DNA of 64,000 nt from positions 1 to 64,000 of IMG/VR virus record IMGVR_UViG_3300008448_000014; one strand, given 5' to 3'. Below the pieces are notes generated by a model, which worked only from the letters and a program-made list of their open reading frames with translations, had not been told where the DNA came from and did not search any database. Shown here piece by piece: positions 3,812-48,184 of this stretch (position 1 is its first letter; every line of letters starts with the position of its first letter). The DNA is from a virus. Both the position numbers and the translations under genes were made by a program.

Positions 3812-4113
3812 TGGAAATCATATTTCAAGGTAATGTAGCAACAGATGGTAGTACAAAAATAACTTGTACATCTACTTCTATGGTTGTAAATGAAATTATT
3901 ATAAATAATATAGATAATAATTACAATATTACTATGAATAGGTTTATGACAGGAGAAGGAATACACCTTATACCTATATATGAATTTGCTTTAGATCTTG
4001 GAGATACAGTAAGAGACACTGAAGGATACACACTAAATCAAGGTAATTTTTTACAACTAATAACTAATGTAATAGGTACAACTTATTATATTAGTGCAAC
4101 AGAAACAGACTAA
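3811..4113 (+). CDS. small beta-rich structural protein
   Basis: Coupled ORF upstream of the fibre gene. Confidence 0.45.
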   Translation: MEIIFQGNVATDGSTKITCTSTSMVVNEIIINNIDNNYNITMNRFMTGEGIHLIPIYEFALDLGDTVRDTEGYTLNQGNFLQLITNVIGTTYYISATETD

Positions 4114-5274
4114 ATGTTACAGATATATAATAAATATGGACAGTTAAAAGTTGTTTCTTCTACATCAAGCACTGGTGTATCTTCTGTTTCAGGAGTTTCT
4201 CCTATCACCTCTACAGGAGGAACAAATCCTATTATTAGTACATTGGTAACTCCTAATAAATTATTAGGAAGATATAGTGCTAGCACTGGACCAATGCAAG
4301 AAATTATAATTGGAAGTGGATTATCTTTAGTTGGTAACACTCTTACCTCTACAAGTGCTGTTACACCAAACGCATTAACAAAAGTTGATGATACTAATGT
4401 TACATTAACATTGGGAGGAAATCCATCAACAGCTTTATTACAAAATGTGTCATTAACATTAGGATGGACAGGGACTTTAGCAGATAGTAGAATAACATCA
4501 GCTAGTACATGGAATGCTAAACAAGATGCAATTTCTTTAACTACATTAGGAACTTCAGGTCCAGCTACATTTATTTCTAATGTATTAAATATTCCACAAT
4601 ATACAGAGGTTTTTACTGGAACAGTTACATCTGTAGCAGCATTGACATTAGGTACTACAGGTACAGATTTATCATCAAGTGTTGTAAATAGTACAACAAC
4701 TCCTGTAATAACTTTAAATGTTCCTACAGCTAGTGCTACAAACAGAGGAGCTTTAAGTAGTACAGATTGGACTATATTTAACAATAAGCAAAATAATTTA
4801 GGCTATACGCCACCTCAAACTTGGTACAGGGGATTAGATGGTGTTACTGTTGCAAATACTCTAACAATTACTCCAACTTATACTCAATTAATACCAGCTA
4901 ATACATTTGCATCTGGTGATGTAGTTGAATTATTATTTAGAAGTACAGCACCTGGAGCTAAAACATCAGCTTCAAGTATTTATGTCTACATAAACACTAC
5001 TAACAATTTGAGTGGAACTCCAATTCAAGTTGGTATTTTAACAGGTGGTGCAACAACAAGAACTATTCAAATAGAAAGAGCTTTAGCTATAAAAGGAGCA
5101 ACAACAAGAGTTATAAATTCAGCTGGTACAACTGCAACTGATACTGGAATAAGTGCCGCAATGTCAACACTTACGATTGATTGGACAGTAAACCAATTCT
5201 TTGTCTTTGCAATAGGACATACAGTTGCTGACCAAACACTAACAGGAGATTTTTACAGAATAACAAAAAATTAA
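4114..5274 (+). CDS. tail/head fibre protein
   Basis: Thr/Ser/Gly-rich fibre repeats (GTVTSV, WNAKQD, FNNKQ) and a beta-rich C-terminal domain. Confidence 0.7.
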   Translation: MLQIYNKYGQLKVVSSTSSTGVSSVSGVSPITSTGGTNPIISTLVTPNKLLGRYSASTGPMQEIIIGSGLSLVGNTLTSTSAVTPNALTKVDDTNVTLTLGGNPSTALLQNVSLTLGWTGTLADSRITSASTWNAKQDAISLTTLGTSGPATFISNVLNIPQYTEVFTGTVTSVAALTLGTTGTDLSSSVVNSTTTPVITLNVPTASATNRGALSSTDWTIFNNKQNNLGYTPPQTWYRGLDGVTVANTLTITPTYTQLIPANTFASGDVVELLFRSTAPGAKTSASSIYVYINTTNNLSGTPIQVGILTGGATTRTIQIERALAIKGATTRVINSAGTTATDTGISAAMSTLTIDWTVNQFFVFAIGHTVADQTLTGDFYRITKN

Positions 5275-6320: not shown

Positions 6321-7334
6321 ATGAAACCAATATTCATCACAGCTCAACCTACAGATAGTTATTTTGTATGGCAAAATCATATGTATATAGAATCTTGTTT
6401 AGCTCAAGGAATTGAACAAGAACAAATACATATTCTATTATACAATCCTATAGGAAGACCTTATAATACCAACTGGGATAAATTAAAAGAATGTTACCCA
6501 AAATTAAATATATTTGTATATCAAGATAAAGGAGTTCAAAAGTTTTTAGGAACTTATATCCCTATATTAAGACCACATATTCTTTGGCAACATTTTGAAG
6601 CTTTTCCAGAATTACAAGATAAAACAATAGTATACACTGACTGTGATATTCTTTGGACAGATAACATGAACATTAATCAGTTATTAGAAGATAACATAAA
6701 TTATGTTAGTGATGCTAGTTCTTATTTAAATAATTCTTATTTTGAAAGTAAAGTAAAAGATGTACTTCCTGATAAGTTAGAACAATATAAAAACAGAGAT
6801 GTAGTAAAAGAACTTTGTACAATAACAGGAATAGATAAACAAACTGTATTAGACAATAATTCAAATACAGGTGGTGTACAATATATATTAAAAAACATTA
6901 ATTCTGATTTTTGGAAAAAAGTGGAAAAAGATGTTCTTCTTATTAGAACACATTTATTGAATTTCAATAGAGAGTTTTTTAAAGATGAAAATAGTGGCAT
7001 ACAATCATGGTGTGCAGATTTATGGGCAGTGCAATACAATCTTTGGTATTTTAACAAAGAGAGTAGAACAACTAAAGAATTAGATTTTGCATGGAGTACA
7101 GATCCTATAAGTAAATTAGAATCATATCCTATTCTTCATAATGCAGGAATAGTTTCTGAAACAGGAAATGGTTACCCAGCTTTCTATAAAGGAAAATATC
7201 ATATGGGAGTTGATCCAACAAAAGATGCTAACCTAGATGTTATTCTTAATAATGAACAATCAAAAAAATATTGTACATGGTTCTATGCTACAAAATTGAA
7301 TGAAATTAAAAATAAATATAAACTTAATTATTAA
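6321..7334 (+). CDS. GT-A glycosyltransferase resembling HPAT/SRGT1 protein O-glycosyltransferases
   Basis: DCD (DxD) motif with YFVWQ, LRPHIL, GGVQY and WCADLWA in the same order as SRGT1/HPAT motifs (recalled, not searched). Confidence 0.65.
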   Translation: MKPIFITAQPTDSYFVWQNHMYIESCLAQGIEQEQIHILLYNPIGRPYNTNWDKLKECYPKLNIFVYQDKGVQKFLGTYIPILRPHILWQHFEAFPELQDKTIVYTDCDILWTDNMNINQLLEDNINYVSDASSYLNNSYFESKVKDVLPDKLEQYKNRDVVKELCTITGIDKQTVLDNNSNTGGVQYILKNINSDFWKKVEKDVLLIRTHLLNFNREFFKDENSGIQSWCADLWAVQYNLWYFNKESRTTKELDFAWSTDPISKLESYPILHNAGIVSETGNGYPAFYKGKYHMGVDPTKDANLDVILNNEQSKKYCTWFYATKLNEIKNKYKLNY

Positions 7335-29593: not shown

Positions 29594-30454
29594 TTAATAA
29601 TCACTATCTTCTTCAGAAATTGCAGCATCAGATGAAACTAAATTATCATCTGGGTTATAATCTGTAATCTCTTTGAATGTATAATAGTCTTTACAACCAT
29701 ATTCACCAGTTACATTAAGAACAAATCTTTCATGTGGTTTTAAGTCTTTAGACTTTTTACTAGCTAGCCCTTCAATAACTTTAGGATTAGAATAATCAAC
29801 AAGTTTAAAGTTCTTTAAAGCATATGCTGGTACAAATGATTTGTTATATATACCTTGGTATTCTTTAACTTCACCATCTTTCTCTTTTGTGATGATTGTA
29901 GCTAAAGCTCCAACATTACCACAATAGTCACCATCAATTTGATCTTTTAAATCTCTTACATTACCTTTCATCAATTTCTTCCAATCAATTTGTAATGTTG
30001 TATCATCACTTCTGTAGTCTAATTCACATAACCATGTTCTAACAAAGTTATAGAAATCTTCTTCTCCTACATATGCAACTCTATAATCTCTAGCAGAAAA
30101 CCATTCTGGTAAATCATCTACATCAGCTGCCCATGAACAAGCACCAATATCATTAATATACTGATGTTTTGTTTGATCTTTATTAGTTCTTTCTTTGTTT
30201 TCTAAGAAGAAATTTACTTTAAATTTATCACCATTTTTAACATCTTCTAACCAGAAATCAACTCTAAGAACAGTGTTTCCATCTCTTTCACTAAGATATT
30301 CTGCAGCTTTACTGTCTTCTTTAAGTTCCATTCCTAGTATGGATTTAAACTGCTCAATAGTAGGATTGATAGCTATAACTGAACACTCTACCATGCCAAC
30401 TTTTAAAGTTTTACTTGAATCACTTAATTGTCTTTTTTCTCCTTTAATACTCAT
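29594..30454 (-). CDS. putative single-stranded DNA-binding protein
   Basis: Lies between AAA ATPase and primase; acidic C-terminal tail (SEEDSDY). Confidence 0.5.
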   Translation of the reverse strand: MSIKGEKRQLSDSSKTLKVGMVECSVIAINPTIEQFKSILGMELKEDSKAAEYLSERDGNTVLRVDFWLEDVKNGDKFKVNFFLENKERTNKDQTKHQYINDIGACSWAADVDDLPEWFSARDYRVAYVGEEDFYNFVRTWLCELDYRSDDTTLQIDWKKLMKGNVRDLKDQIDGDYCGNVGALATIITKEKDGEVKEYQGIYNKSFVPAYALKNFKLVDYSNPKVIEGLASKKSKDLKPHERFVLNVTGEYGCKDYYTFKEITDYNPDDNLVSSDAAISEEDSDY

Positions 30455-30460
30455 AATTTT

Positions 30461-31105
30461 TTAATTTAAATAATAAAAATTTGTTTTTAATTTATTGTTT
30501 TTAATTTTACCTTCAAGGTATCTTTTTATAATAGAGAAAGATACATTATAGTGTTTAGCTGCTTCAGAAATACTATCCCAAATAGTTTCTTTATTTAAAA
30601 AATTTATTTCTTTTATTTTTATTTTAAATGAGCTATTTTTACTAATATTTAATCTATGTTCTATTGTTATAACCTGCAAAGCTCTTTTTTCTCTTATTTT
30701 ATTTTTTGTTTCTTCAGAATGTTTAGATCCCTTTTTTCTTCCTCTATTTTTACACTTAGATAAAGCTATTCTACAATTTTCTGAAATTATTCCTGTTTTA
30801 CCTCCTTTCGTTTTATTTAATAAATTGTTTCCTTCTTTTTCATACTTTTCTATCCACTCTTTTTCTTTTTCTTCCCATATTTCAGTAAGAACTTCTTCTA
30901 AAATATTTAATTTAGGTCGTATACCTTTTTCTAAAAGGGATTTAATCCATTTTGCTTTATCTTCATTTTTTCCTTTTATGTTATTTTTAGCTTCATGAAT
31001 ATGTCCCCAAAATCTGTTAAAAGGGTCTACAGTTTTTCCTACATATCTAATTTCTTCTGATTCTGGATCAGACAAAGAATAAATATAAACAGTTTTCATT
31101 TTCAT
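30461..31105 (-). CDS. GIY-YIG homing endonuclease (NUMOD3/NUMOD1)
   Basis: VYIYSL.DP...RYVGKT; HSEETKNKI; SISEAAK. Confidence 0.85.
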   Translation of the reverse strand: MKMKTVYIYSLSDPESEEIRYVGKTVDPFNRFWGHIHEAKNNIKGKNEDKAKWIKSLLEKGIRPKLNILEEVLTEIWEEKEKEWIEKYEKEGNNLLNKTKGGKTGIISENCRIALSKCKNRGRKKGSKHSEETKNKIREKRALQVITIEHRLNISKNSSFKIKIKEINFLNKETIWDSISEAAKHYNVSFSIIKRYLEGKIKNNKLKTNFYYLN

Positions 31106-31185
31106 AATAAATAGGTTTAAAATTATTTTGTAAATATATAAAATTTAAACCTACTTTCAAACAACTATAATAATTAATTTAATTT

Positions 31186-31857
31186 TTAGTTATAATATTC
31201 ATTAATTTTTTCTATAACAACTTGTAAGTTATTAGGTATTTTTACATCTGTAAACATTCCATCAGGACTTTTAGCTGGAAACTTTTTGTATCTATTAGTT
31301 ACAAAGTTATAGTCTACCATCCCATCCTTCTTTTCTTCTACATTTGTATATAATACAACTGTAAAAAGTCCTTCTAGATTAATTTGATTATCAATCAATT
31401 TACCTGCAGTTTTAATTTTGTATCCTATAATCTCACCACCATCTTCAATAGTTTCTGGGTGTGTAAAATAGAATACAATTAAATCATCTCTTAATGTTCT
31501 AGCTGTTCTAACTAAATCCACCATATCTTTAGCCATAAGACTAAATTTAGTGAAACCAGTTTCTGTAGCTTTAGCAACCATATTAAAACCCATTATATAG
31601 TTTGAATCTTCTATAATGATGTTTTTAATGTGTGGTGCTTTTTCAGAGATTGTTTTTAACAACTTGCTGATTTCAATAGCATCATCTACTTCTTTGTAAT
31701 TTTTGCTTTCTACGTTGTACAGTTTCTCACTTCCTTTAAATGGAAGTTCTTTTTTTGCTACGTTAATAATGTAAGTTTCTTTTGGGTCTAGATGTTTAAT
31801 ACTTGTTGATTTTCCAGTTCCTGTCTGTCCAACTATGCCTATCAGCTTCGAGCTCAT
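31186..31857 (-). CDS. AAA ATPase (Sak4/AAA_24-like annealing protein)
   Basis: GQTGTGKSTS, IIIED, PAKSPDGMF. Confidence 0.8.
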   Translation of the reverse strand: MSSKLIGIVGQTGTGKSTSIKHLDPKETYIINVAKKELPFKGSEKLYNVESKNYKEVDDAIEISKLLKTISEKAPHIKNIIIEDSNYIMGFNMVAKATETGFTKFSLMAKDMVDLVRTARTLRDDLIVFYFTHPETIEDGGEIIGYKIKTAGKLIDNQINLEGLFTVVLYTNVEEKKDGMVDYNFVTNRYKKFPAKSPDGMFTDVKIPNNLQVVIEKINEYYN

Positions 31858-32759
31858 ATGTTATATTTTTTATAGTTTTTTACTGATTTTATTCTTTCTT
31901 GTAATAAATCATATACTGCATAAACTAAACATCCAATATGTTTGGAAGCTTCTTTTACAGAATTAAATTTATATTCTACACCTTCTTTATATATAATAAT
32001 TTCTTTTTTATCTAAATTAGGGTTTAATGAGTTAATGGTCCACCCATTAATTGGTTTTTTACTTTTGTCTAATTTTTTATAAATAAAATCAGAGATATTT
32101 AAAAATTCCATAATTTCTGAAAATGTACTAAAAATTCTAATTTCTTTTTTTTCATAATTATATAAATATAAATAATCTTCTAAATGTAATTTACAAGTTT
32201 TTGAAATAAATATATTATCTATAGATCTTTTAGATTTTATTCTACTAATTATAGCTTTAATAGTTGTATTAAATAATACAGCAGTAGAAGTAATACTTTC
32301 TTCCTCTTTCAATAAATTTCCAAACTTATCAAACAAAAATAATTTTGTTGTTTTTTTCTTTATCTCATTTTTTTCATATTTTTCTTTTAATGTTTTACTT
32401 ATTAATTTTTTAGTATCTTCTGTAGTTATTCTACTTTCAGGACCAATACCTCTATCTTGAGCATTTAATAAATTAAATTTATCTTTATACTTTCCTATTA
32501 ATGATGTTTCAAAAATATATGATTCATTCCATCCTTTAATTTCAATCAATTTTTTAATTTTAGGTTCAATTCCTTTTTTTAATAAAGAATTTATCCAATT
32601 TACTTTGTGGGGAGGATTTCTGTTAGGAAAATATTTATTATAATATTTTGATTTACTTATATGTTCAATTAACCTTATTTCTAAAGGTTTTCTAGTTCGT
32701 CCAATGTATCTAATCTTACAATCTGTAGGATCATACAAACAATATATATTTACTTTCAT
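31854..32759 (-). CDS. GIY-YIG homing endonuclease
   Basis: NIYCLYDP...RYIGRT; NUMOD1-like FNSVKEAS; ATG at 32759. Confidence 0.85.
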   Translation of the reverse strand: MKVNIYCLYDPTDCKIRYIGRTRKPLEIRLIEHISKSKYYNKYFPNRNPPHKVNWINSLLKKGIEPKIKKLIEIKGWNESYIFETSLIGKYKDKFNLLNAQDRGIGPESRITTEDTKKLISKTLKEKYEKNEIKKKTTKLFLFDKFGNLLKEEESITSTAVLFNTTIKAIISRIKSKRSIDNIFISKTCKLHLEDYLYLYNYEKKEIRIFSTFSEIMEFLNISDFIYKKLDKSKKPINGWTINSLNPNLDKKEIIIYKEGVEYKFNSVKEASKHIGCLVYAVYDLLQERIKSVKNYKKYNI

Positions 32760-32803
32760 AAGCAAATATAATTATAATTTTACAGCAAACTGGTATATAA
32801 ATG

Positions 32804-32860
32804 TTAAATTGTTGTTAAATCACCTGTTTGTCCTACAATTCCAATTAGTTTAGAGCTCAT
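32804..32860 (-). pseudogene. stub of the original AAA ATPase 5' end (MSSKLIGIVGQTG-DLTTI*)
   Basis: First 13 aa identical to the gene starting at 31857. Confidence 0.9.
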
Positions 32861-33485
32861 ATTTAATTATTAATTTTAGTTTGTAATTCTTTATCTGTTA
32901 AAATATACTCTTTGCAATAAGTTGTAGATCCATTTTCTTCTAATACTACATTTCCATTTTTAATAGACTCTTTTAATAGATTTAAACGATCTTCGTCATT
33001 GTTACAGTATTCTTTTAACAACGCTAATACCTGTTCTTGTTTTTCATTCATTTTTTAATTTATTTAGTTAATTTTTTAAAGAATAAAGATACAAATAATT
33101 TTTTTAATTATCAACTATTCTACTCTATATTTTCTGTTAAATTCTATTAGCTTTTTAGCTAATTCCTCTGGGTTTAATTCTGATTCATCGTGATTATTAT
33201 CTCTTCGTTGATGTTCTTTAAACCACCATTCTAAATCTGAATTTACAAATTTATAATCAAAATTAGACACTACTATTTCCATAGCTTTACATAGAAATAC
33301 TGTCATAAAAGAATTAAAAGCAATGTTTTCTAGTTCTTTTAATTCTAAACTTTCTAACTCTATAATTCTTTTTTTTAATGATGCATTTTCATCAATTAAA
33401 TCATCAATAGGATTACTAGGTTTTTTAAAATTATTAGAATCTCCACAACAATTTGAATTCCATTCATCTACTCTACAAGGCATAA

Positions 33486-34568
33486 TTATATATATTTAAT
33501 TTTGTTTTTATCTATTAATTGAAGTGATTTCTCAAGCCATTTATTTTGAAAAACTTCTGTACTCACAAATATATGTATATGTGAATGATCTGTATCATCT
33601 AGTAAACTTCTTCCTATCATTTGCTCTAAATTTTCTCCATTACCATTAATGGCAGTTATTAATATATTTTGCAATTCTGGAAAAGTTACACCAGCAGAAG
33701 CTTTCTTTAATAAACACAATTGATTTATATCTCCTTGTTGAAATTGTTTTAAAATAGAATCATCTTTACTTTTACTATTGAACATAGGAAGATTATATTT
33801 AAGTCCTGTTTTTTCATCAGAACTAAATAATATAAACCTCTTATCTTTGTTATTGATAATCCATTTGTTTACACATTCAATTAAAGAGTCACATGAATTA
33901 ATAAATCTCATTCTTTCTAAAGACTTAAACATCTTTAGTTGACCACTGCTTTTTAATATAAAAGCACTGAGTCTGTTACATTCTTTTTTCTCTGTTGATT
34001 TCCATTTCTTTACTCTACCATACTCTACTATTTTAGTGTTATTTAAATTATATCTATGTATATAAATAGTAAAATCACTAACAATACCATCTTTAATAGC
34101 TTTGTTAGTAGAATAATCTACTATCAATTTCATTTTAGTAAAAAACTTTATGTCAGCTAAAGTTTCTTTATTATACGTACCAGAAGCAAACATTACATGT
34201 TTATTGTTTTTTGCTATATCTCCTGCAATAGGCATTTGATTTTCTTCTCCAAGAAGATGAGCTTCATCAAATACATAATAATCAGCAATTACTTTTTTGT
34301 TTTTTTCTAAAGACATAAAAGTGGAAAATATAATAATTTGTTTAAAGTTTAATCTATTTATTTCATTTTCCCAAGAAATACGCACGTCTATATTAGGATA
34401 AGCTATAAACACTGTTATTTCTTTATTATTACTATGATTTTTTATTGATTCTAAAATCATTTTTGTTTTTCCTGATCTTACACTAGATAATATAATACCT
34501 TTACAATTATTTTCTATAATAGTATTTTGTATTTTTTCTTGAATTAAATCTTTTTTTGTATTAATCAT
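33486..34568 (-). CDS. SF2 helicase (DExH)
   Basis: RSGKT, FDEAH, SGT, QMIGR; probable ATG 34568. Confidence 0.8.
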   Translation of the reverse strand: MINTKKDLIQEKIQNTIIENNCKGIILSSVRSGKTKMILESIKNHSNNKEITVFIAYPNIDVRISWENEINRLNFKQIIIFSTFMSLEKNKKVIADYYVFDEAHLLGEENQMPIAGDIAKNNKHVMFASGTYNKETLADIKFFTKMKLIVDYSTNKAIKDGIVSDFTIYIHRYNLNNTKIVEYGRVKKWKSTEKKECNRLSAFILKSSGQLKMFKSLERMRFINSCDSLIECVNKWIINNKDKRFILFSSDEKTGLKYNLPMFNSKSKDDSILKQFQQGDINQLCLLKKASAGVTFPELQNILITAINGNGENLEQMIGRSLLDDTDHSHIHIFVSTEVFQNKWLEKSLQLIDKNKIKYI

Positions 34569-35313
34569 ATTTATATTTCCATTTAAATCCACAAGATTGT
34601 TTTTGCCTACCTTTTAACGTTGCAGGTATATCTCCTTTAAAAAATTTTTTAGCTTCTGTTACAGTTTTCCATTCTTTAATAAAATTATCATTTAAATCAT
34701 ATTGTATTATAGGTTTTGAAACTCTTTCAGAAACTTTTTTTCTATTCTCAATTGACATACCTTTACCTATATTACCTAGTTTAATTTTTTCTTTAGTAAT
34801 TTCAGATAAAATTCTACCTTTTTTAGCTTTGCTCATTTTTTCACGAGCCTCTTTTGACATTTTTTTACCTTTGTTACCTTGAGAAATTTTTTTCTTAGTA
34901 TCTTCAGTATGTTTTTTATTTAAAAAATGTCCTACATGTCCTAATAATGTTTTAGATATTTTATTTTTAGTTTCTTGTAAAATTATTCTATTACTCATTT
35001 TTTTCTTTGTTTCCTCGCTTACTATTCTAGGTAAAATATCTGTTTCTTGTAATCTACAATTTAACCCTTTAGTGGAAACAACATTAAATAAATCTTGATA
35101 ATATCTTTCTTTAAGATTTAATTGATCATGTTTACATTCTTCAATTATTTCAAAAATATGATTTTCTACGCCATATTTTAAAAAGCTTTTATACAAAATA
35201 GGTTGATTTTTACAAGAAAGATTTTTATAATTTTTAAATCTTTTTTCAATATTAATACTTTGCCCAATGTATATTTTACCACTTGGACTTGTGATTTTAT
35301 AAATTCCTATCAT
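34561..35313 (-). CDS. GIY-YIG homing endonuclease (NUMOD3 + NUMOD1)
   Basis: MIGIYKITSPSGKIYIGQS; ATG at 35313. Confidence 0.9.
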   Translation of the reverse strand: MIGIYKITSPSGKIYIGQSINIEKRFKNYKNLSCKNQPILYKSFLKYGVENHIFEIIEECKHDQLNLKERYYQDLFNVVSTKGLNCRLQETDILPRIVSEETKKKMSNRIILQETKNKISKTLLGHVGHFLNKKHTEDTKKKISQGNKGKKMSKEAREKMSKAKKGRILSEITKEKIKLGNIGKGMSIENRKKVSERVSKPIIQYDLNDNFIKEWKTVTEAKKFFKGDIPATLKGRQKQSCGFKWKYKYD

Positions 35314-36356
35314 TTTGTATAAAATTAATTTTATACAAAAATAAGTAATTAATATCAATATTTGGACAAAGTATTATTTTTTTTTTATCTACACTTGTAT
35401 TTCTGTTTTTGTCATAATTCTTTGTTATAATATTCTTCTTCAAAATGTTCATATAAAGCCATCAATGTGTAAGAATGTTTTTTTGTTAACCATTCAGCAA
35501 AATGAATTACTTTGTTATCAGTATTAATTTTTTCTAGTTCTTTTGCTTTTTCAATAATTGGTTCATCATCAGCTATACTCACACCAGTTAATGTTTTTAT
35601 ACCATCAACTACATATTCTACTGCTGTCATAACTTCTTAGTTAAATAATATTTTAAATCTAATGCTCTTCTTTTAACAGCACCAGACATTCTGGTATTGC
35701 TAATATCATGTTTACCTATAACTATTCCATTATAACTACTAACATATCCTGTTGTAGCTTTAGCAACTGTTATAGCTTCATCCACTGTATCTGAGAATCT
35801 TTTGATTTCAGATTTAATTTGTATTAAGTCTTCTAGTTTCATTTTTTATTATATTTTATTAATTTCTATTTTGTTTTAAATTATTTTTCCATTCTATCCA
35901 AAAACCTATAGCTACTAATATATTCATACCAAAAGAAGCAATAATTTCATGTAAGTCTTCATATATATTCATAGTTAAGTGAACATGTCCAATTACCCAA
36001 AAAGGTACTGATAAATTACTTGCTGTCCATGTTATAAAAAATATAATAAATTTTTTCATTTGTCTCCTTTACTAATCAAGTAATACCATAACCAAATCAC
36101 TTTTGGCCTTATAAACTCATAACCTATCCATATTAATAAGTATTTCATTCTTCTTTGTTTTTTATATATCCATATACATTAAAACCTTCTTCATCTTCAT
36201 ATTTAGTACCATCCTTACGAACTCCCCATTTATACCACATAGCCATAATTGTTGATTCATTAGTTTTACTCCATTTATCATCTTCAAACCTGAATTGTTC
36301 TTTGTCTGATTTTTCTTTAAATAAAGGAACAAATCCTTCTGGTTTTTCTTTTCTCA

Positions 36357-45211: not shown

Positions 45212-47242
45212 TCACTTTGCATCATACCAAGAATTTCCATAATGTGCGTCTGCCTTGATTTTTAATGTTTGTAAATAATGGTTTCCACCTTCAATCATAG
45301 CTTCTTCAACTTTAGTTCTAGCTAATTCTGCTAAATCTACAGGACATTCTATTACTAATTCATCATGTACAGAATTACATATTTTAATTATATTAATATA
45401 ATTATTATCAACTATCCAATCAAAAAGTATTAAAGCACTTCTCTTAATCATCATGGCACTTCTGGCTTGAACAGGGTTGTTAAGGCATAAACGTTGGTAT
45501 TCAGATTTAAGTTTAAAAAATTGACTCACTTCTGTTTTCTTTGACTTATAATATGTCACAGCTTTAGGAAATATATATGTATATTCATTTCCTTTTTCTT
45601 TCTCATCAAACTTCTTTTTATAATCTAATTTACCTTGTTTATATAACTGCCATTGTTCTTTAGTTATAGCCTCAACTTTACCTTTGTATTCATTAAACTT
45701 ATCAAACTTTGGTAGAGCTAGTTTCCAACCATCTGCAGATTCTATATATCCTTGCTTAACAGCTTTATTGAATTCTTCTGCTCCCCATGTATACAATCCT
45801 TCATGAAGTTCTTTAAAAGCATCTTCAATTCTATATGCTTGTACTAATGGTATTCCTTCATTTTGATGAATAGTATATGCAGAACCACCATATTGAAATG
45901 CAAACCTTGGACTCTTTGCTGCTTGTCTTTTAGATTTATGTTCTTTAATGATTGTTTCATCATCAAGTTCTTCTAATTCTGGATATAAAACTCTAGCAAA
46001 AGCACAATGCAAATCATCTCCATTAACTACAGAAGATGTCATTGCAGCATCTCCAGATAAATCTGCAGCTACAACAGTTTCTTGACCACTATAATCACAA
46101 ACAATAATTACATTACCTTTATTAGCTTTAAAACACTTTCTTGTAATACTATCAGAAGGAAAATTTAAAAAGTTTATATTTCCTTTTCTAGTAGATAGTC
46201 TAGCTGTATCAACCATAGGATTAAAGTTAGTGTATATACGTTCATTCTCTATTTGCTTGTATATACTTTCTCCAAAGGTTGTAACTCTATGATTAGCTTC
46301 TTGAAAACTAAGCCACATATCAACAAAATCATGTTTAGATTTCTTTATAATGTTTTCTCCAATACTATCTTTACCATCTTTATCCTTTGTAGGGATACCA
46401 AAAGCATTAAAGACTTTAAGCATTTGTGATGGTGAATTAATAGATACATGTATTCTTTTCTTTGTGTCAAACATATCTATTTGTCCATCTGCAAATTGTG
46501 GAAGATTATCATATATATACTCTTCAATTATAGTTTTCCATTTGAATGTATTTTCTATGTCTTCAACCATTTTATCTTTCCATGATTTAGAGCTAATAGG
46601 AAGCCCACATTGCTCAATATATGCTAAAGCTCTAATATATCTACAATGAAGATTATATGTCTCTGTAAAGCCTCTTTTATTGATTTTAAGCATTAATGCA
46701 TCATGTAACTCAATAAGTCTATCAACATCATTAAATGAATACTCAATTGTACTCTGTTGGCTTAATTTAACTATATGAATATTCTTTTGGTCTGTTTTGT
46801 CATATATAACATCAAGTTCTCTTTCCATCACTTTACCAAAATCATGTCTATAAGGCATAAAGTCTTTATCAACTTGTCCATTATATATAATCTTACTAGC
46901 AAGCATTGTATCTCTAACATCTTTAGGATAGAATCCATACTTATAACAAAACCCTACATCAAATAATGCATTATGAAATATTAATGTCTTGCTCTCTATA
47001 TAAGGAACCAAATCACTAAACTTATAACTATTTTCTCCACTAGTATATAAGTCTATAATATAATTGTTTTTTCCTGTTCCAATTTGTACACAAAATATAT
47101 CACAATGTCTTGGTTGAAGTCCACTAGTTTCTGTGTCTATTCCTATAATATCAGGTAAAATTAAATCAGTTAAATCACAGTAATTATACTTACCAATTTT
47201 TTCAAAATATTTTTTATTTTTAGTTATAATAAAATTTGCCAT
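45212..47242 (-). CDS. polA: DNA polymerase family A with 3'-5' exonuclease
   Basis: DTETSG, HNALFD, TARLS, DYSGQE, RQAAK...YG, NNPVQ, VHDE. Confidence 0.95.
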   Translation of the reverse strand: MANFIITKNKKYFEKIGKYNYCDLTDLILPDIIGIDTETSGLQPRHCDIFCVQIGTGKNNYIIDLYTSGENSYKFSDLVPYIESKTLIFHNALFDVGFCYKYGFYPKDVRDTMLASKIIYNGQVDKDFMPYRHDFGKVMERELDVIYDKTDQKNIHIVKLSQQSTIEYSFNDVDRLIELHDALMLKINKRGFTETYNLHCRYIRALAYIEQCGLPISSKSWKDKMVEDIENTFKWKTIIEEYIYDNLPQFADGQIDMFDTKKRIHVSINSPSQMLKVFNAFGIPTKDKDGKDSIGENIIKKSKHDFVDMWLSFQEANHRVTTFGESIYKQIENERIYTNFNPMVDTARLSTRKGNINFLNFPSDSITRKCFKANKGNVIIVCDYSGQETVVAADLSGDAAMTSSVVNGDDLHCAFARVLYPELEELDDETIIKEHKSKRQAAKSPRFAFQYGGSAYTIHQNEGIPLVQAYRIEDAFKELHEGLYTWGAEEFNKAVKQGYIESADGWKLALPKFDKFNEYKGKVEAITKEQWQLYKQGKLDYKKKFDEKEKGNEYTYIFPKAVTYYKSKKTEVSQFFKLKSEYQRLCLNNPVQARSAMMIKRSALILFDWIVDNNYINIIKICNSVHDELVIECPVDLAELARTKVEEAMIEGGNHYLQTLKIKADAHYGNSWYDAK

Positions 47243-48003
47243 TATTTGTTTCTTTTTACTTTTTTAAAGAATAATCCTTTATAAGATTTGTTATTTTTAA
47301 TTGCTCTAAATATATTTTGATAAGATACTATTTTATTTTTTAAATACTTTTTATTAAATTTTTTAGCATTAATATTGTAAAACTCAATATAATCAGGAAT
47401 TGGTAAATCATTTTCTTTTGTTCTAGAAAATCTATCTATTTCCAAAGTATTATCAAATCTTCTAAAAAAGTTCATATTAATATCATACACTTCTATGTCA
47501 TCAAACATATTTTTTCTAGCATCAGAAATGTTATTACATACTAAACCTTTATTCCAAGAAGGTTTACCTTTTTTAATATTAGATAAATGTTGCCTGTAAT
47601 TTTCATTATTTTTATATCTTTCCTTTAATGTATCACTTATTTTTTTCTTTACATCACTATTACAAGGAGGTTGAGTAGTAACATCACTTATATTGTATCC
47701 ATTTTTAATACTATTAAAAAAGTTTATATAAAAAGATTCTTTTTCTCTTATAAAAGGTATATTATTATTTTCTAATATTTCTATTACAGAAAATTCAAAA
47801 TTTTCTATACCATGTTTTAAAACAGAATTATTTAAATAACTATTATGATGGTTACCTGTCTTAAGTTTTCTTACATGTTCAGTATATCTTCTTTTAAAAG
47901 TCATTTTTGTTGACCCAATGTAAACTTTATTATTTAATAAGTTTTTTATCATATAAACTCCTGAAAGTTTAAATGTTTCTAAATTTGGTATTGCTATTTT
48001 CAT
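47242..48003 (-). CDS. GIY-YIG homing endonuclease
   Basis: SGVYMI...KVYIGST...RY.EH...GYN. Confidence 0.9.
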   Translation of the reverse strand: MKIAIPNLETFKLSGVYMIKNLLNNKVYIGSTKMTFKRRYTEHVRKLKTGNHHNSYLNNSVLKHGIENFEFSVIEILENNNIPFIREKESFYINFFNSIKNGYNISDVTTQPPCNSDVKKKISDTLKERYKNNENYRQHLSNIKKGKPSWNKGLVCNNISDARKNMFDDIEVYDINMNFFRRFDNTLEIDRFSRTKENDLPIPDYIEFYNINAKKFNKKYLKNKIVSYQNIFRAIKNNKSYKGLFFKKVKRNK

Positions 48004-48061
48004 AGCACAAATATATAAAATTTACATTAGATACACAAACATTTTTAAACATTAGTTAGTT

Positions 48062-48184
48062 TTAACCTGTTGTTTCACTATCACAAGCAATTACATCTGG
48101 AAGAATCATATCTTCTAAACTACAATAATTGTAATCACCAATGCTTTCAAACTGTTCTTTATTCTTGCATACTATATAGTTCAT
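48062..48184 (-). pseudogene. stub of a PolA 5' end (40 aa, ends at the ExoI motif DSETTG*)
   Basis: MNYIVCKNKEQFESIGDYNYCSLEDMILPDVIACDSETTG aligns without gaps to the PolA N-terminus. Confidence 0.9.

Follow-up and report, generated by a model that had tools for sequence, protein, structure and literature searches.

A GIY-YIG endonuclease gene and a duplicated gene start at the Walker A codons of a phage ATPase gene

A stub, an endonuclease gene and a restarted ATPase gene

The virus record IMGVR_UViG_3300008448_000014 is complete (113,909 bp, with direct terminal repeats), and the window analyzed here is its first 64 kb. On the minus strand of the window lies a replication module in the order helicase gene, two small open reading frames (ORFs), stub, endonuclease gene, ATPase gene, second endonuclease gene, gene for a protein of 286 amino acids (aa), and primase gene. 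We examine the middle of this module, where the beginning of the ATPase gene is present twice, once on either side of a GIY-YIG endonuclease gene.

The stub opens at the ATG at 32860 with 13 codons (MSSKLIGIVGQTG), continues through five unrelated codons and ends with a TAA whose last base is 32804, making an ORF of 18 codons in all. Some 40 nucleotides (nt) of noncoding DNA separate it from the endonuclease ATG at 32759. At the other end, the endonuclease stop codon and the new ATG (31857) share the letters ATGA. The intact gene that starts there encodes the same 13 residues as the stub and then TGKSTS; the break therefore falls inside Walker A, between GQTG and TGKS. The two copies differ at 9 of 39 nt, and every difference is a silent third-position change, with 9 of the 13 codons affected. 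Random single-base changes in the stub would be expected to be silent in only about 27% of cases. The original prediction had described this anatomy (stub and restart, a break in Walker A, nine silently changed codons and a stop-start overlap), and each detail proved correct when the sequence was read.

Two short motifs lie between the stub and the endonuclease gene (Table 1). The one at the left end is not a repeated genomic signal: the window holds a single exact copy, and near matches occur at chance level. The other, a TATATTTG box, is a candidate Bacteroidota-type -7 promoter element; matching boxes also precede the endonuclease genes linked to polA and to the helicase gene, which are described below.

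The 223-aa product of the complete gene matches Pfam family PF13479 (AAA_24) with 34.4 bits against a cut-off of 27, and PHROG 2872 with an E value of 5e-53. The downstream ORF alone spans residues 1 to 223 of its ATPase homologues (n = 3,051), nearly all of which are 223 aa long among the matches listed. We conclude from these profiles that the gene encodes a predicted AAA_24, Sak4-like single-strand annealing ATPase. A Pfam scan of the 301-aa protein itself gave no GIY-YIG match, and a PDB profile search gave a weak UvrC match alone (E = 0.2). When its first 120 residues were compared by hhalign as a 14-member alignment, however, they matched a neighboring PF01541-positive GIY-YIG protein with 97.7% probability (E = 2e-12). 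Residues Y6, Y18, G20, R29, E32, H33, E84 and N99 are invariant in 14 full-length homologues of 48 to 100% identity and include the catalytic Tyr, Tyr, Arg, His, Glu and Asn. The C-terminal half carries a weak NUMOD1 match (21.6 bits, just below the 22.8 cut-off), and PF07453 is present in some of the homologues according to precomputed lists. Judged by its N-terminal catalytic domain, the ORF would thus encode a GIY-YIG homing endonuclease.

Table 1. Features of the stub, endonuclease and ATPase locus in the window
Feature	Position	Strand	Remarks
Stub, the apparent orphaned native 5' end of the Sak4-like ATPase gene	32822..32860	-	ATG and 12 codons, MSSKLIGIVGQTG; ends inside Walker A
Tail of the stub ORF, out of context	32804..32821	-	DLTTI, then TAA; overlaps the left end of the putative cassette
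Left-end motif of the putative cassette, TTAACAACAATTTAAC	32803..32818	-	Abuts the stub directly; consensus TTAACAAnAnTTTAAC, recognizable in 5 of 6 lineages
TATATTTG box	32763..32770	-	3 nt 5' of the endonuclease ATG, read from the sequence; variants TATCTTTA and TAATTTTA at the equivalent place in other lineages
Free-standing GIY-YIG homing endonuclease gene (predicted), 301 aa	31854..32759	-	ATG at 32759 to TGA at 31854
Replacement 5' end	31819..31857	-	New ATG and 12 codons; same 13 residues as the stub, 9 silent differences
Complete Sak4-like AAA_24 ATPase gene (predicted), 223 aa	31186..31857	-	Walker A intact; PF13479, PHROG 2872
Block of 1,039 nt without mismatch to the independent contig L096	31814..32852	-	From stub codon 4 through the endonuclease gene and new start to nt 44 of the gene

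Relatives and other loci

With the endonuclease protein alone as query, viral contigs yielded no close endonuclease-bearing relative; a profile built from the 14 homologues was required to recover such relatives, whose endonucleases are 48 to 100% identical. They form six lineages: the window with L096, L097 with L098, L100, L082 to L084, L085 with L099, and L101. For comparison we used 80 viral contigs that lack the endonuclease gene and that hold the closest ATPase loci (ATPase 79 to 97% identical). The phage GenBank collection contained no close relative, and the best ATPase match there, in crAss-like and other phages, was 41% identical.

All 80 endonuclease-free relatives have a single ATPase start right after the helicase gene, with no such endonuclease gene and no duplicate. 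Often this start is of the stub type, and in L002 and L003 it leads without a break into ACTGGAAAATCA, which in the window comes after the new start. Both expectations of the original prediction for such relatives, that the stub-type 5' end would run straight into the gene body and that the duplication would be absent without the nuclease, were thereby borne out, the former in L002 and L003 and the latter in the entire set.

Which of the two copies is the native one? The stub of the window differs from the native start of L002 at 4 of 39 nt; the L096 stub differs from that same start at 1 of 39 nt, and the L100 stub is identical to the start of L055 over 33 nt. The new starts, in contrast, lie 6 to 9 nt away from any endonuclease-free allele, and that of the window is at least 7 nt from all those sampled. 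In the window, L096 and L100, for which close endonuclease-free relatives were sampled, stubs are 0 to 4 nt and new starts 6 to 7 nt from the nearest allele; in L097, L082 and L085, the margin by which the stub is closer is only 1 to 2 nt. Among the codons that differ between stub and new start in five lineages, 40 differ silently and 5 by replacements at naturally variable positions. We conclude that the orphaned native end appears closer to element-free relatives than the imported copy is. Given the excess of silent differences and the match of the stubs to local alleles, both copies would have diverged while functional in different genomes and would have been joined recently.

The combination of stub, endonuclease gene and complete ATPase gene is found in all six diverged lineages, which come from independent metagenomes of several projects. 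Stubs break within codons 11 to 13 across the lineages, and the left junction, TTAACAA.A.TTTAAC, adjoins the stub in five of the six and has diverged in L101. The endonuclease stop and the new ATG overlap as ATGA in four lineages; the stop lies 4 nt before the ATG in one, and the two genes overlap by 11 nt in another. In all six the reading frame of the 13 new codons continues into the gene body, as expected if the element carries a new gene start, and a stop that overlaps or abuts the new ATG in each of them is consistent with the coupled expression that had also been proposed.

Several observations bear on mobility. Sequence identities are incongruent between lineages: L100 and L082 are 83% identical in the ATPase and 61% in the endonuclease, while for L097 and L085 the values are 59% and 69%. 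In the ATPase tree the endonuclease-bearing loci are scattered among endonuclease-free ones, and well-supported branches force at least three changes. The sister contig L096, which is 98.9% identical to the window, has 0 mismatches in the 1,039-nt block and 17 in 1,157 nt of flanking sequence (about 1.5%), a rate at which about 15 mismatches would be expected in the block. The block is likely a recently transferred unit. A comparison with L001, an endonuclease-free contig, gives 17 differing sites in nt 1 to 156 of the gene and then none over 269 nt; the pattern is suggestive of a co-conversion tract, and the direction of exchange is ambiguous. By these comparisons, the endonuclease gene appears to be patchily distributed and to move horizontally among related genomes. 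We conclude that the arrangement of stub, endonuclease gene and restart is real, recurrent and mobile.

The region upstream of the stub also varies. The two small ORFs at 32863-33483 of the window (122 aa and 62 aa, with no family match) make up 597 nt inserted between helicase gene and stub; this insertion is absent from L096 and from all 80 relatives. Codons 2 and 3 of the stub differ exactly at the right edge of this insertion, reading AGCTCT in the window and AGTAGT in L096.

The same layout was observed at two more loci of the window. At the helicase gene (34561-35414, minus strand), a stub of 8 codons (ATGACAAAAACAGAAATACAAG), which matches the first 22 nt of the native helicase start in L001, is followed by a 265-aa GIY-YIG/NUMOD gene and by a restart at the ATG at 34568, which has a diverged N-terminus and lies 8 nt before the endonuclease stop. 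At polA (47242-48184, minus strand), the stub comprises 40 codons (48184..48062) and breaks off at the ExoI DxE motif. The GIY-YIG gene that comes next encodes 253 aa (48003..47242) and is preceded by a TTTG-N20-TATATTTG box, and the complete polA gene lies downstream, its ATG sharing one base with the endonuclease stop. Endonuclease-free polA N-termini are 77 to 82% identical to the stub versus 63 to 65% to the new start. A further GIY-YIG gene, of 214 aa, lies at 30461-31105 (minus strand) between the ATPase gene and that for the 286-aa protein, whose start it overlaps by 8 nt; we saw no stub there, and L079 has a 66% homologue at the same place.

Group I introns occur at comparable sites. 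A clade of 201-aa GIY-YIG proteins is encoded in group I introns within the GxxGxGKS codons of several P-loop genes (L102:2887-3870, L103, L104, L105:1-985, L106 and L107), and in L102 and L103 the intron splits a distant AAA_24 gene. The Rfam model RF00028 misses L102 and L103, which were called introns from exon logic and from their alignment with L105, which Rfam does detect. The ATPase gene of the window also occurs in the more distantly related phage L089 (6634-8188), where a group I intron that Rfam recognizes (6864-7096) breaks it at residues 84/87 and a GIY-YIG gene comes next; this contig has another intron at 4761-4998.

A probable mobile cassette and its alternatives

We consider it probable that a mobile homing-endonuclease cassette has invaded the Walker A codons of a phage Sak4-like (AAA_24) gene without the help of an intron or intein. 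The cassette would extend from the left-end motif through a short promoter-like leader and the 301-aa GIY-YIG gene to the new ATG and 12 codons of the target gene. Its insertion at about codon 13 would orphan the resident start as the 18-codon stub ORF, and the imported start, fused in frame to the resident body, would give a full-length ATPase from the new ATG. To spread, the nuclease would cut endonuclease-free alleles in or near the Walker A codons, and repair of the break would copy the cassette from a co-infecting donor, homology being provided on the left by the upstream region and stub and on the right by the gene body. The silent differences would stem from the foreign origin of the imported start, an allele that had diverged while functional in another lineage. 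As for its origin, one-sided illegitimate break repair, a process that occurs in T4 homing (PMC2988022), probably turned an ordinary intergenic endonuclease gene into the first cassette.

Perhaps the silent recoding has a function of its own? For pairs of endonuclease-free alleles taken at random, the median difference is 9 of 39 nt, and the 9 to 13 differences between stub and new start are within this natural range. Hence, the replacement end is most simply a foreign allele travelling with the endonuclease gene. The longest run of identity between stub and new start is 5 to 8 nt. Such short runs would hinder deletion by repeat recombination, which fits an anti-deletion role without proving one. 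Two filters may plausibly act: a copy resembling the stub too closely would be deleted through repeat recombination, and one that restored a site open to cleavage would be cut. Going further, we tentatively suggest, as a possibility that we would not bet on, that these loci belong to a distinct and common class of phage elements, natural "home-and-rescue" drives. Such elements would insert at the cut site in codons of catalytic motifs (Walker A, the polymerase ExoI motif, the helicase start); the silent divergence of the rescue start would be selected both for nuclease immunity and against repeat loss; the stub would be kept as the left homology arm; and the intron-borne and cassette-borne Walker A relatives would be interchangeable solutions of one endonuclease lineage.

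A number of points weigh against the cassette, or against parts of it. L001 has no endonuclease gene and yet has a partly new-type start (codons 4 to 9), so either the new-type allele would also circulate alone or L001 would reflect loss of the endonuclease gene; its start may be a mark of such past loss or a free resistant allele. Among the alleles compared, no base separates all endonuclease-linked starts from all endonuclease-free ones, and nuclease immunity through recoding is therefore without direct support. The stub ends vary by a few nt among lineages, which strictly precise insertion would not predict. Finally, the cut site is a prediction deduced from the positions of the stub ends, and the absence of splicing is a prediction from sequence. 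As a separate observation on L001, the closest endonuclease-free relative, positions 3872-4003 of that contig hold a 43-aa ORF whose TGA overlaps the ATPase ATG.

Could the endonuclease gene instead lie in an intervening sequence that is removed after transcription or translation? An intein does not appear to fit, as a stop closes the stub frame five codons further on, and the endonuclease ORF opens with an ATG of its own beyond noncoding DNA. A split gene of the nrdA-mobE type was rejected on the grounds that the downstream ORF alone covers the whole protein. If the element were a self-splicing group I intron with an endonuclease gene, the stub would act as exon 1 and splicing would connect it to the body, leaving the second start downstream as an incidental copy. 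There is precedent in shorter relatives of the endonuclease (50 to 60% identical in the catalytic domain), which sit in group I introns that split ATPase Walker A codons; L105 scores 68.8 bits to RF00028, L102 and L103 show R/S-like core elements and have an exon 1 (MANAIAIVGDTGTG) that joins KSSS..., and the stub of the window ends in T, as group I 5' exons do. The Rfam search, however, gave no match in 31750-32900 at an E value of 10 or less, nor in 30000-36000 at 1 or less, although the same search does detect introns in L089, L090 and L105. The endonuclease ORF fills all but about 60 nt of the stretch from stub ORF to restart, whereas the true introns keep a noncoding core of 250 to 330 nt after the endonuclease gene, and no conserved guanine is present at the would-be 3' splice site. 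Moreover, the downstream gene is complete with its own ATG in six of six lineages, and the intron-bearing loci have no duplicated start. We regard splicing as very improbable; the splicing-free route in the original prediction agrees with the missing intron match and the scant noncoding space. A variant of this idea holds that an intron-borne endonuclease targeting Walker A lost its ribozyme by recombining with an intron-less allele just upstream of the ATG of that allele. Related endonuclease genes do occur in group I introns 1 to 2 codons from the equivalent site, in distant AAA_24 and other P-loop genes. Against this, Rfam detects no ribozyme remnant, the left end resembles intron 5' ends no more than AT-rich background would, and the helicase and polA cases show the same layout with other GIY-YIG genes that have no intron relatives. 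Such descent seems to us rather improbable; as it concerns origin only, it is compatible with the cassette.

The arrangement might also be nothing but a repair scar, left each time a genome separately acquired an intergenic endonuclease gene by one-sided illegitimate repair, with no defined unit that moves. T4 homing with one-sided homology does give illegitimate junctions (PMC2988022), stubs are present at three different loci of one genome, and in L123 a polA-linked endonuclease gene lies just upstream of polA with no stub ORF of at least 20 aa listed upstream. The left junction, however, coincides to within a few nt in five of the six lineages, although the stub preceding it is specific to each lineage. 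Independent illegitimate joins would not hit the same donor nucleotides and are hence disfavored. We think it unlikely that scars account for the pattern; one-sided illegitimate repair most likely explains how the first cassette arose and not how it spread. That the source is a metagenome assembly is the sole point in favor of an assembly artefact or a meaningless local tandem duplication. The architecture recurs in independent assemblies from several projects, L096 reproduces it at 98.9% identity, and the two copies differ at silent sites only, which leaves this explanation a negligible chance.

Known systems and significance

The closest precedent for the cassette is found in fungal mitochondria, where endonuclease ORFs (mORFs) carry a foreign C-terminus of atp6, atp9, cox2 or nad3 and orphan the native one (PMC3630166; PMC7487136). 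Those in Glomus affect atp6, atp9, cox2 and nad3 (PMC3630166), and an atp6 mORF in Allomyces macrogynus is attributed to Paquin, Laforest and Lang (1994) as cited in PMC3630166. As in the mORFs, a conserved gene houses an endonuclease gene along with a diverged second copy of the end that was displaced; this copy, being in frame, makes the gene whole again, no splicing appears to be involved, and the orphaned native end is closer to element-free relatives than the imported copy. The phage element is a mirror image of this known type, because the replacement affects the 5' end with its start codon, and the rescued gene lies downstream of the endonuclease gene. It differs further in that the endonuclease ORF is separate, its stop overlapping the new ATG, rather than fused in frame, and in its phage host, its 13-codon duplicated piece and its catalytic P-loop target.

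Among phages, the free-standing GIY-YIG endonucleases SegF, SegG and SegB of T-even phages spread by intronless homing (PMC2988022, PMC2330249). Their genes likewise adjoin the target gene and are patchy among related phages; flanking target sequence is co-converted, and differences in the sequence of its own allele are believed to shield the carrier genome. Seg genes, however, lie between intact genes and leave no orphan fragment, whereas here insertion inside coding sequence has produced a stub and a restart. The intron-encoded GIY-YIG enzymes (I-TevI type, and L105 and L102 to L104) share with our endonuclease a homologous catalytic domain (50 to 60% identity to the intron-borne relatives), a target in conserved-motif codons and an insertion that disrupts the site, but there is no ribozyme at the ATPase locus, and function would be restored at the DNA level by a carried start and not by RNA splicing. 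Genes split by endonuclease genes are a further parallel: mobE in nrdA of Aeh1 and mobA with T4 gene 60 (PMC2988022) also occupy critical coding regions without an intron or intein. There both halves are needed and the products reassemble, while here a complete downstream gene makes the upstream piece dispensable. We found no report in the literature of a carried replacement gene start in phages, and a review centered on T4-type elements names introns, inteins, gene splitting and translational bypassing as the means by which homing endonuclease genes settle in essential coding sequence, with no carried gene end among them (PMC2988022).

A carried piece that restores the disrupted gene is also a feature of synthetic home-and-rescue gene drives, in which an engineered Cas9 nuclease targets an essential gene and a recoded piece restores it. 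The phage element is natural and protein-guided in comparison, and the immunity of its recoded copy is only hypothetical.

The element adds another route by which homing endonuclease genes enter phage coding sequence, namely by bringing their own replacement gene start; carried gene ends had previously been documented for the 3' ends of genes in fungal mitochondria. At one and the same motif, some related endonucleases rely on an intron and others on a carried gene start. For annotation, the stubs are easily called as small genes, and for phylogeny, the imported starts are foreign sequence within otherwise native genes. The presence of the element three times in one genome and in several lineages of freshwater phages makes both the intron-like precision of free-standing endonuclease genes and immunity through recoding testable.

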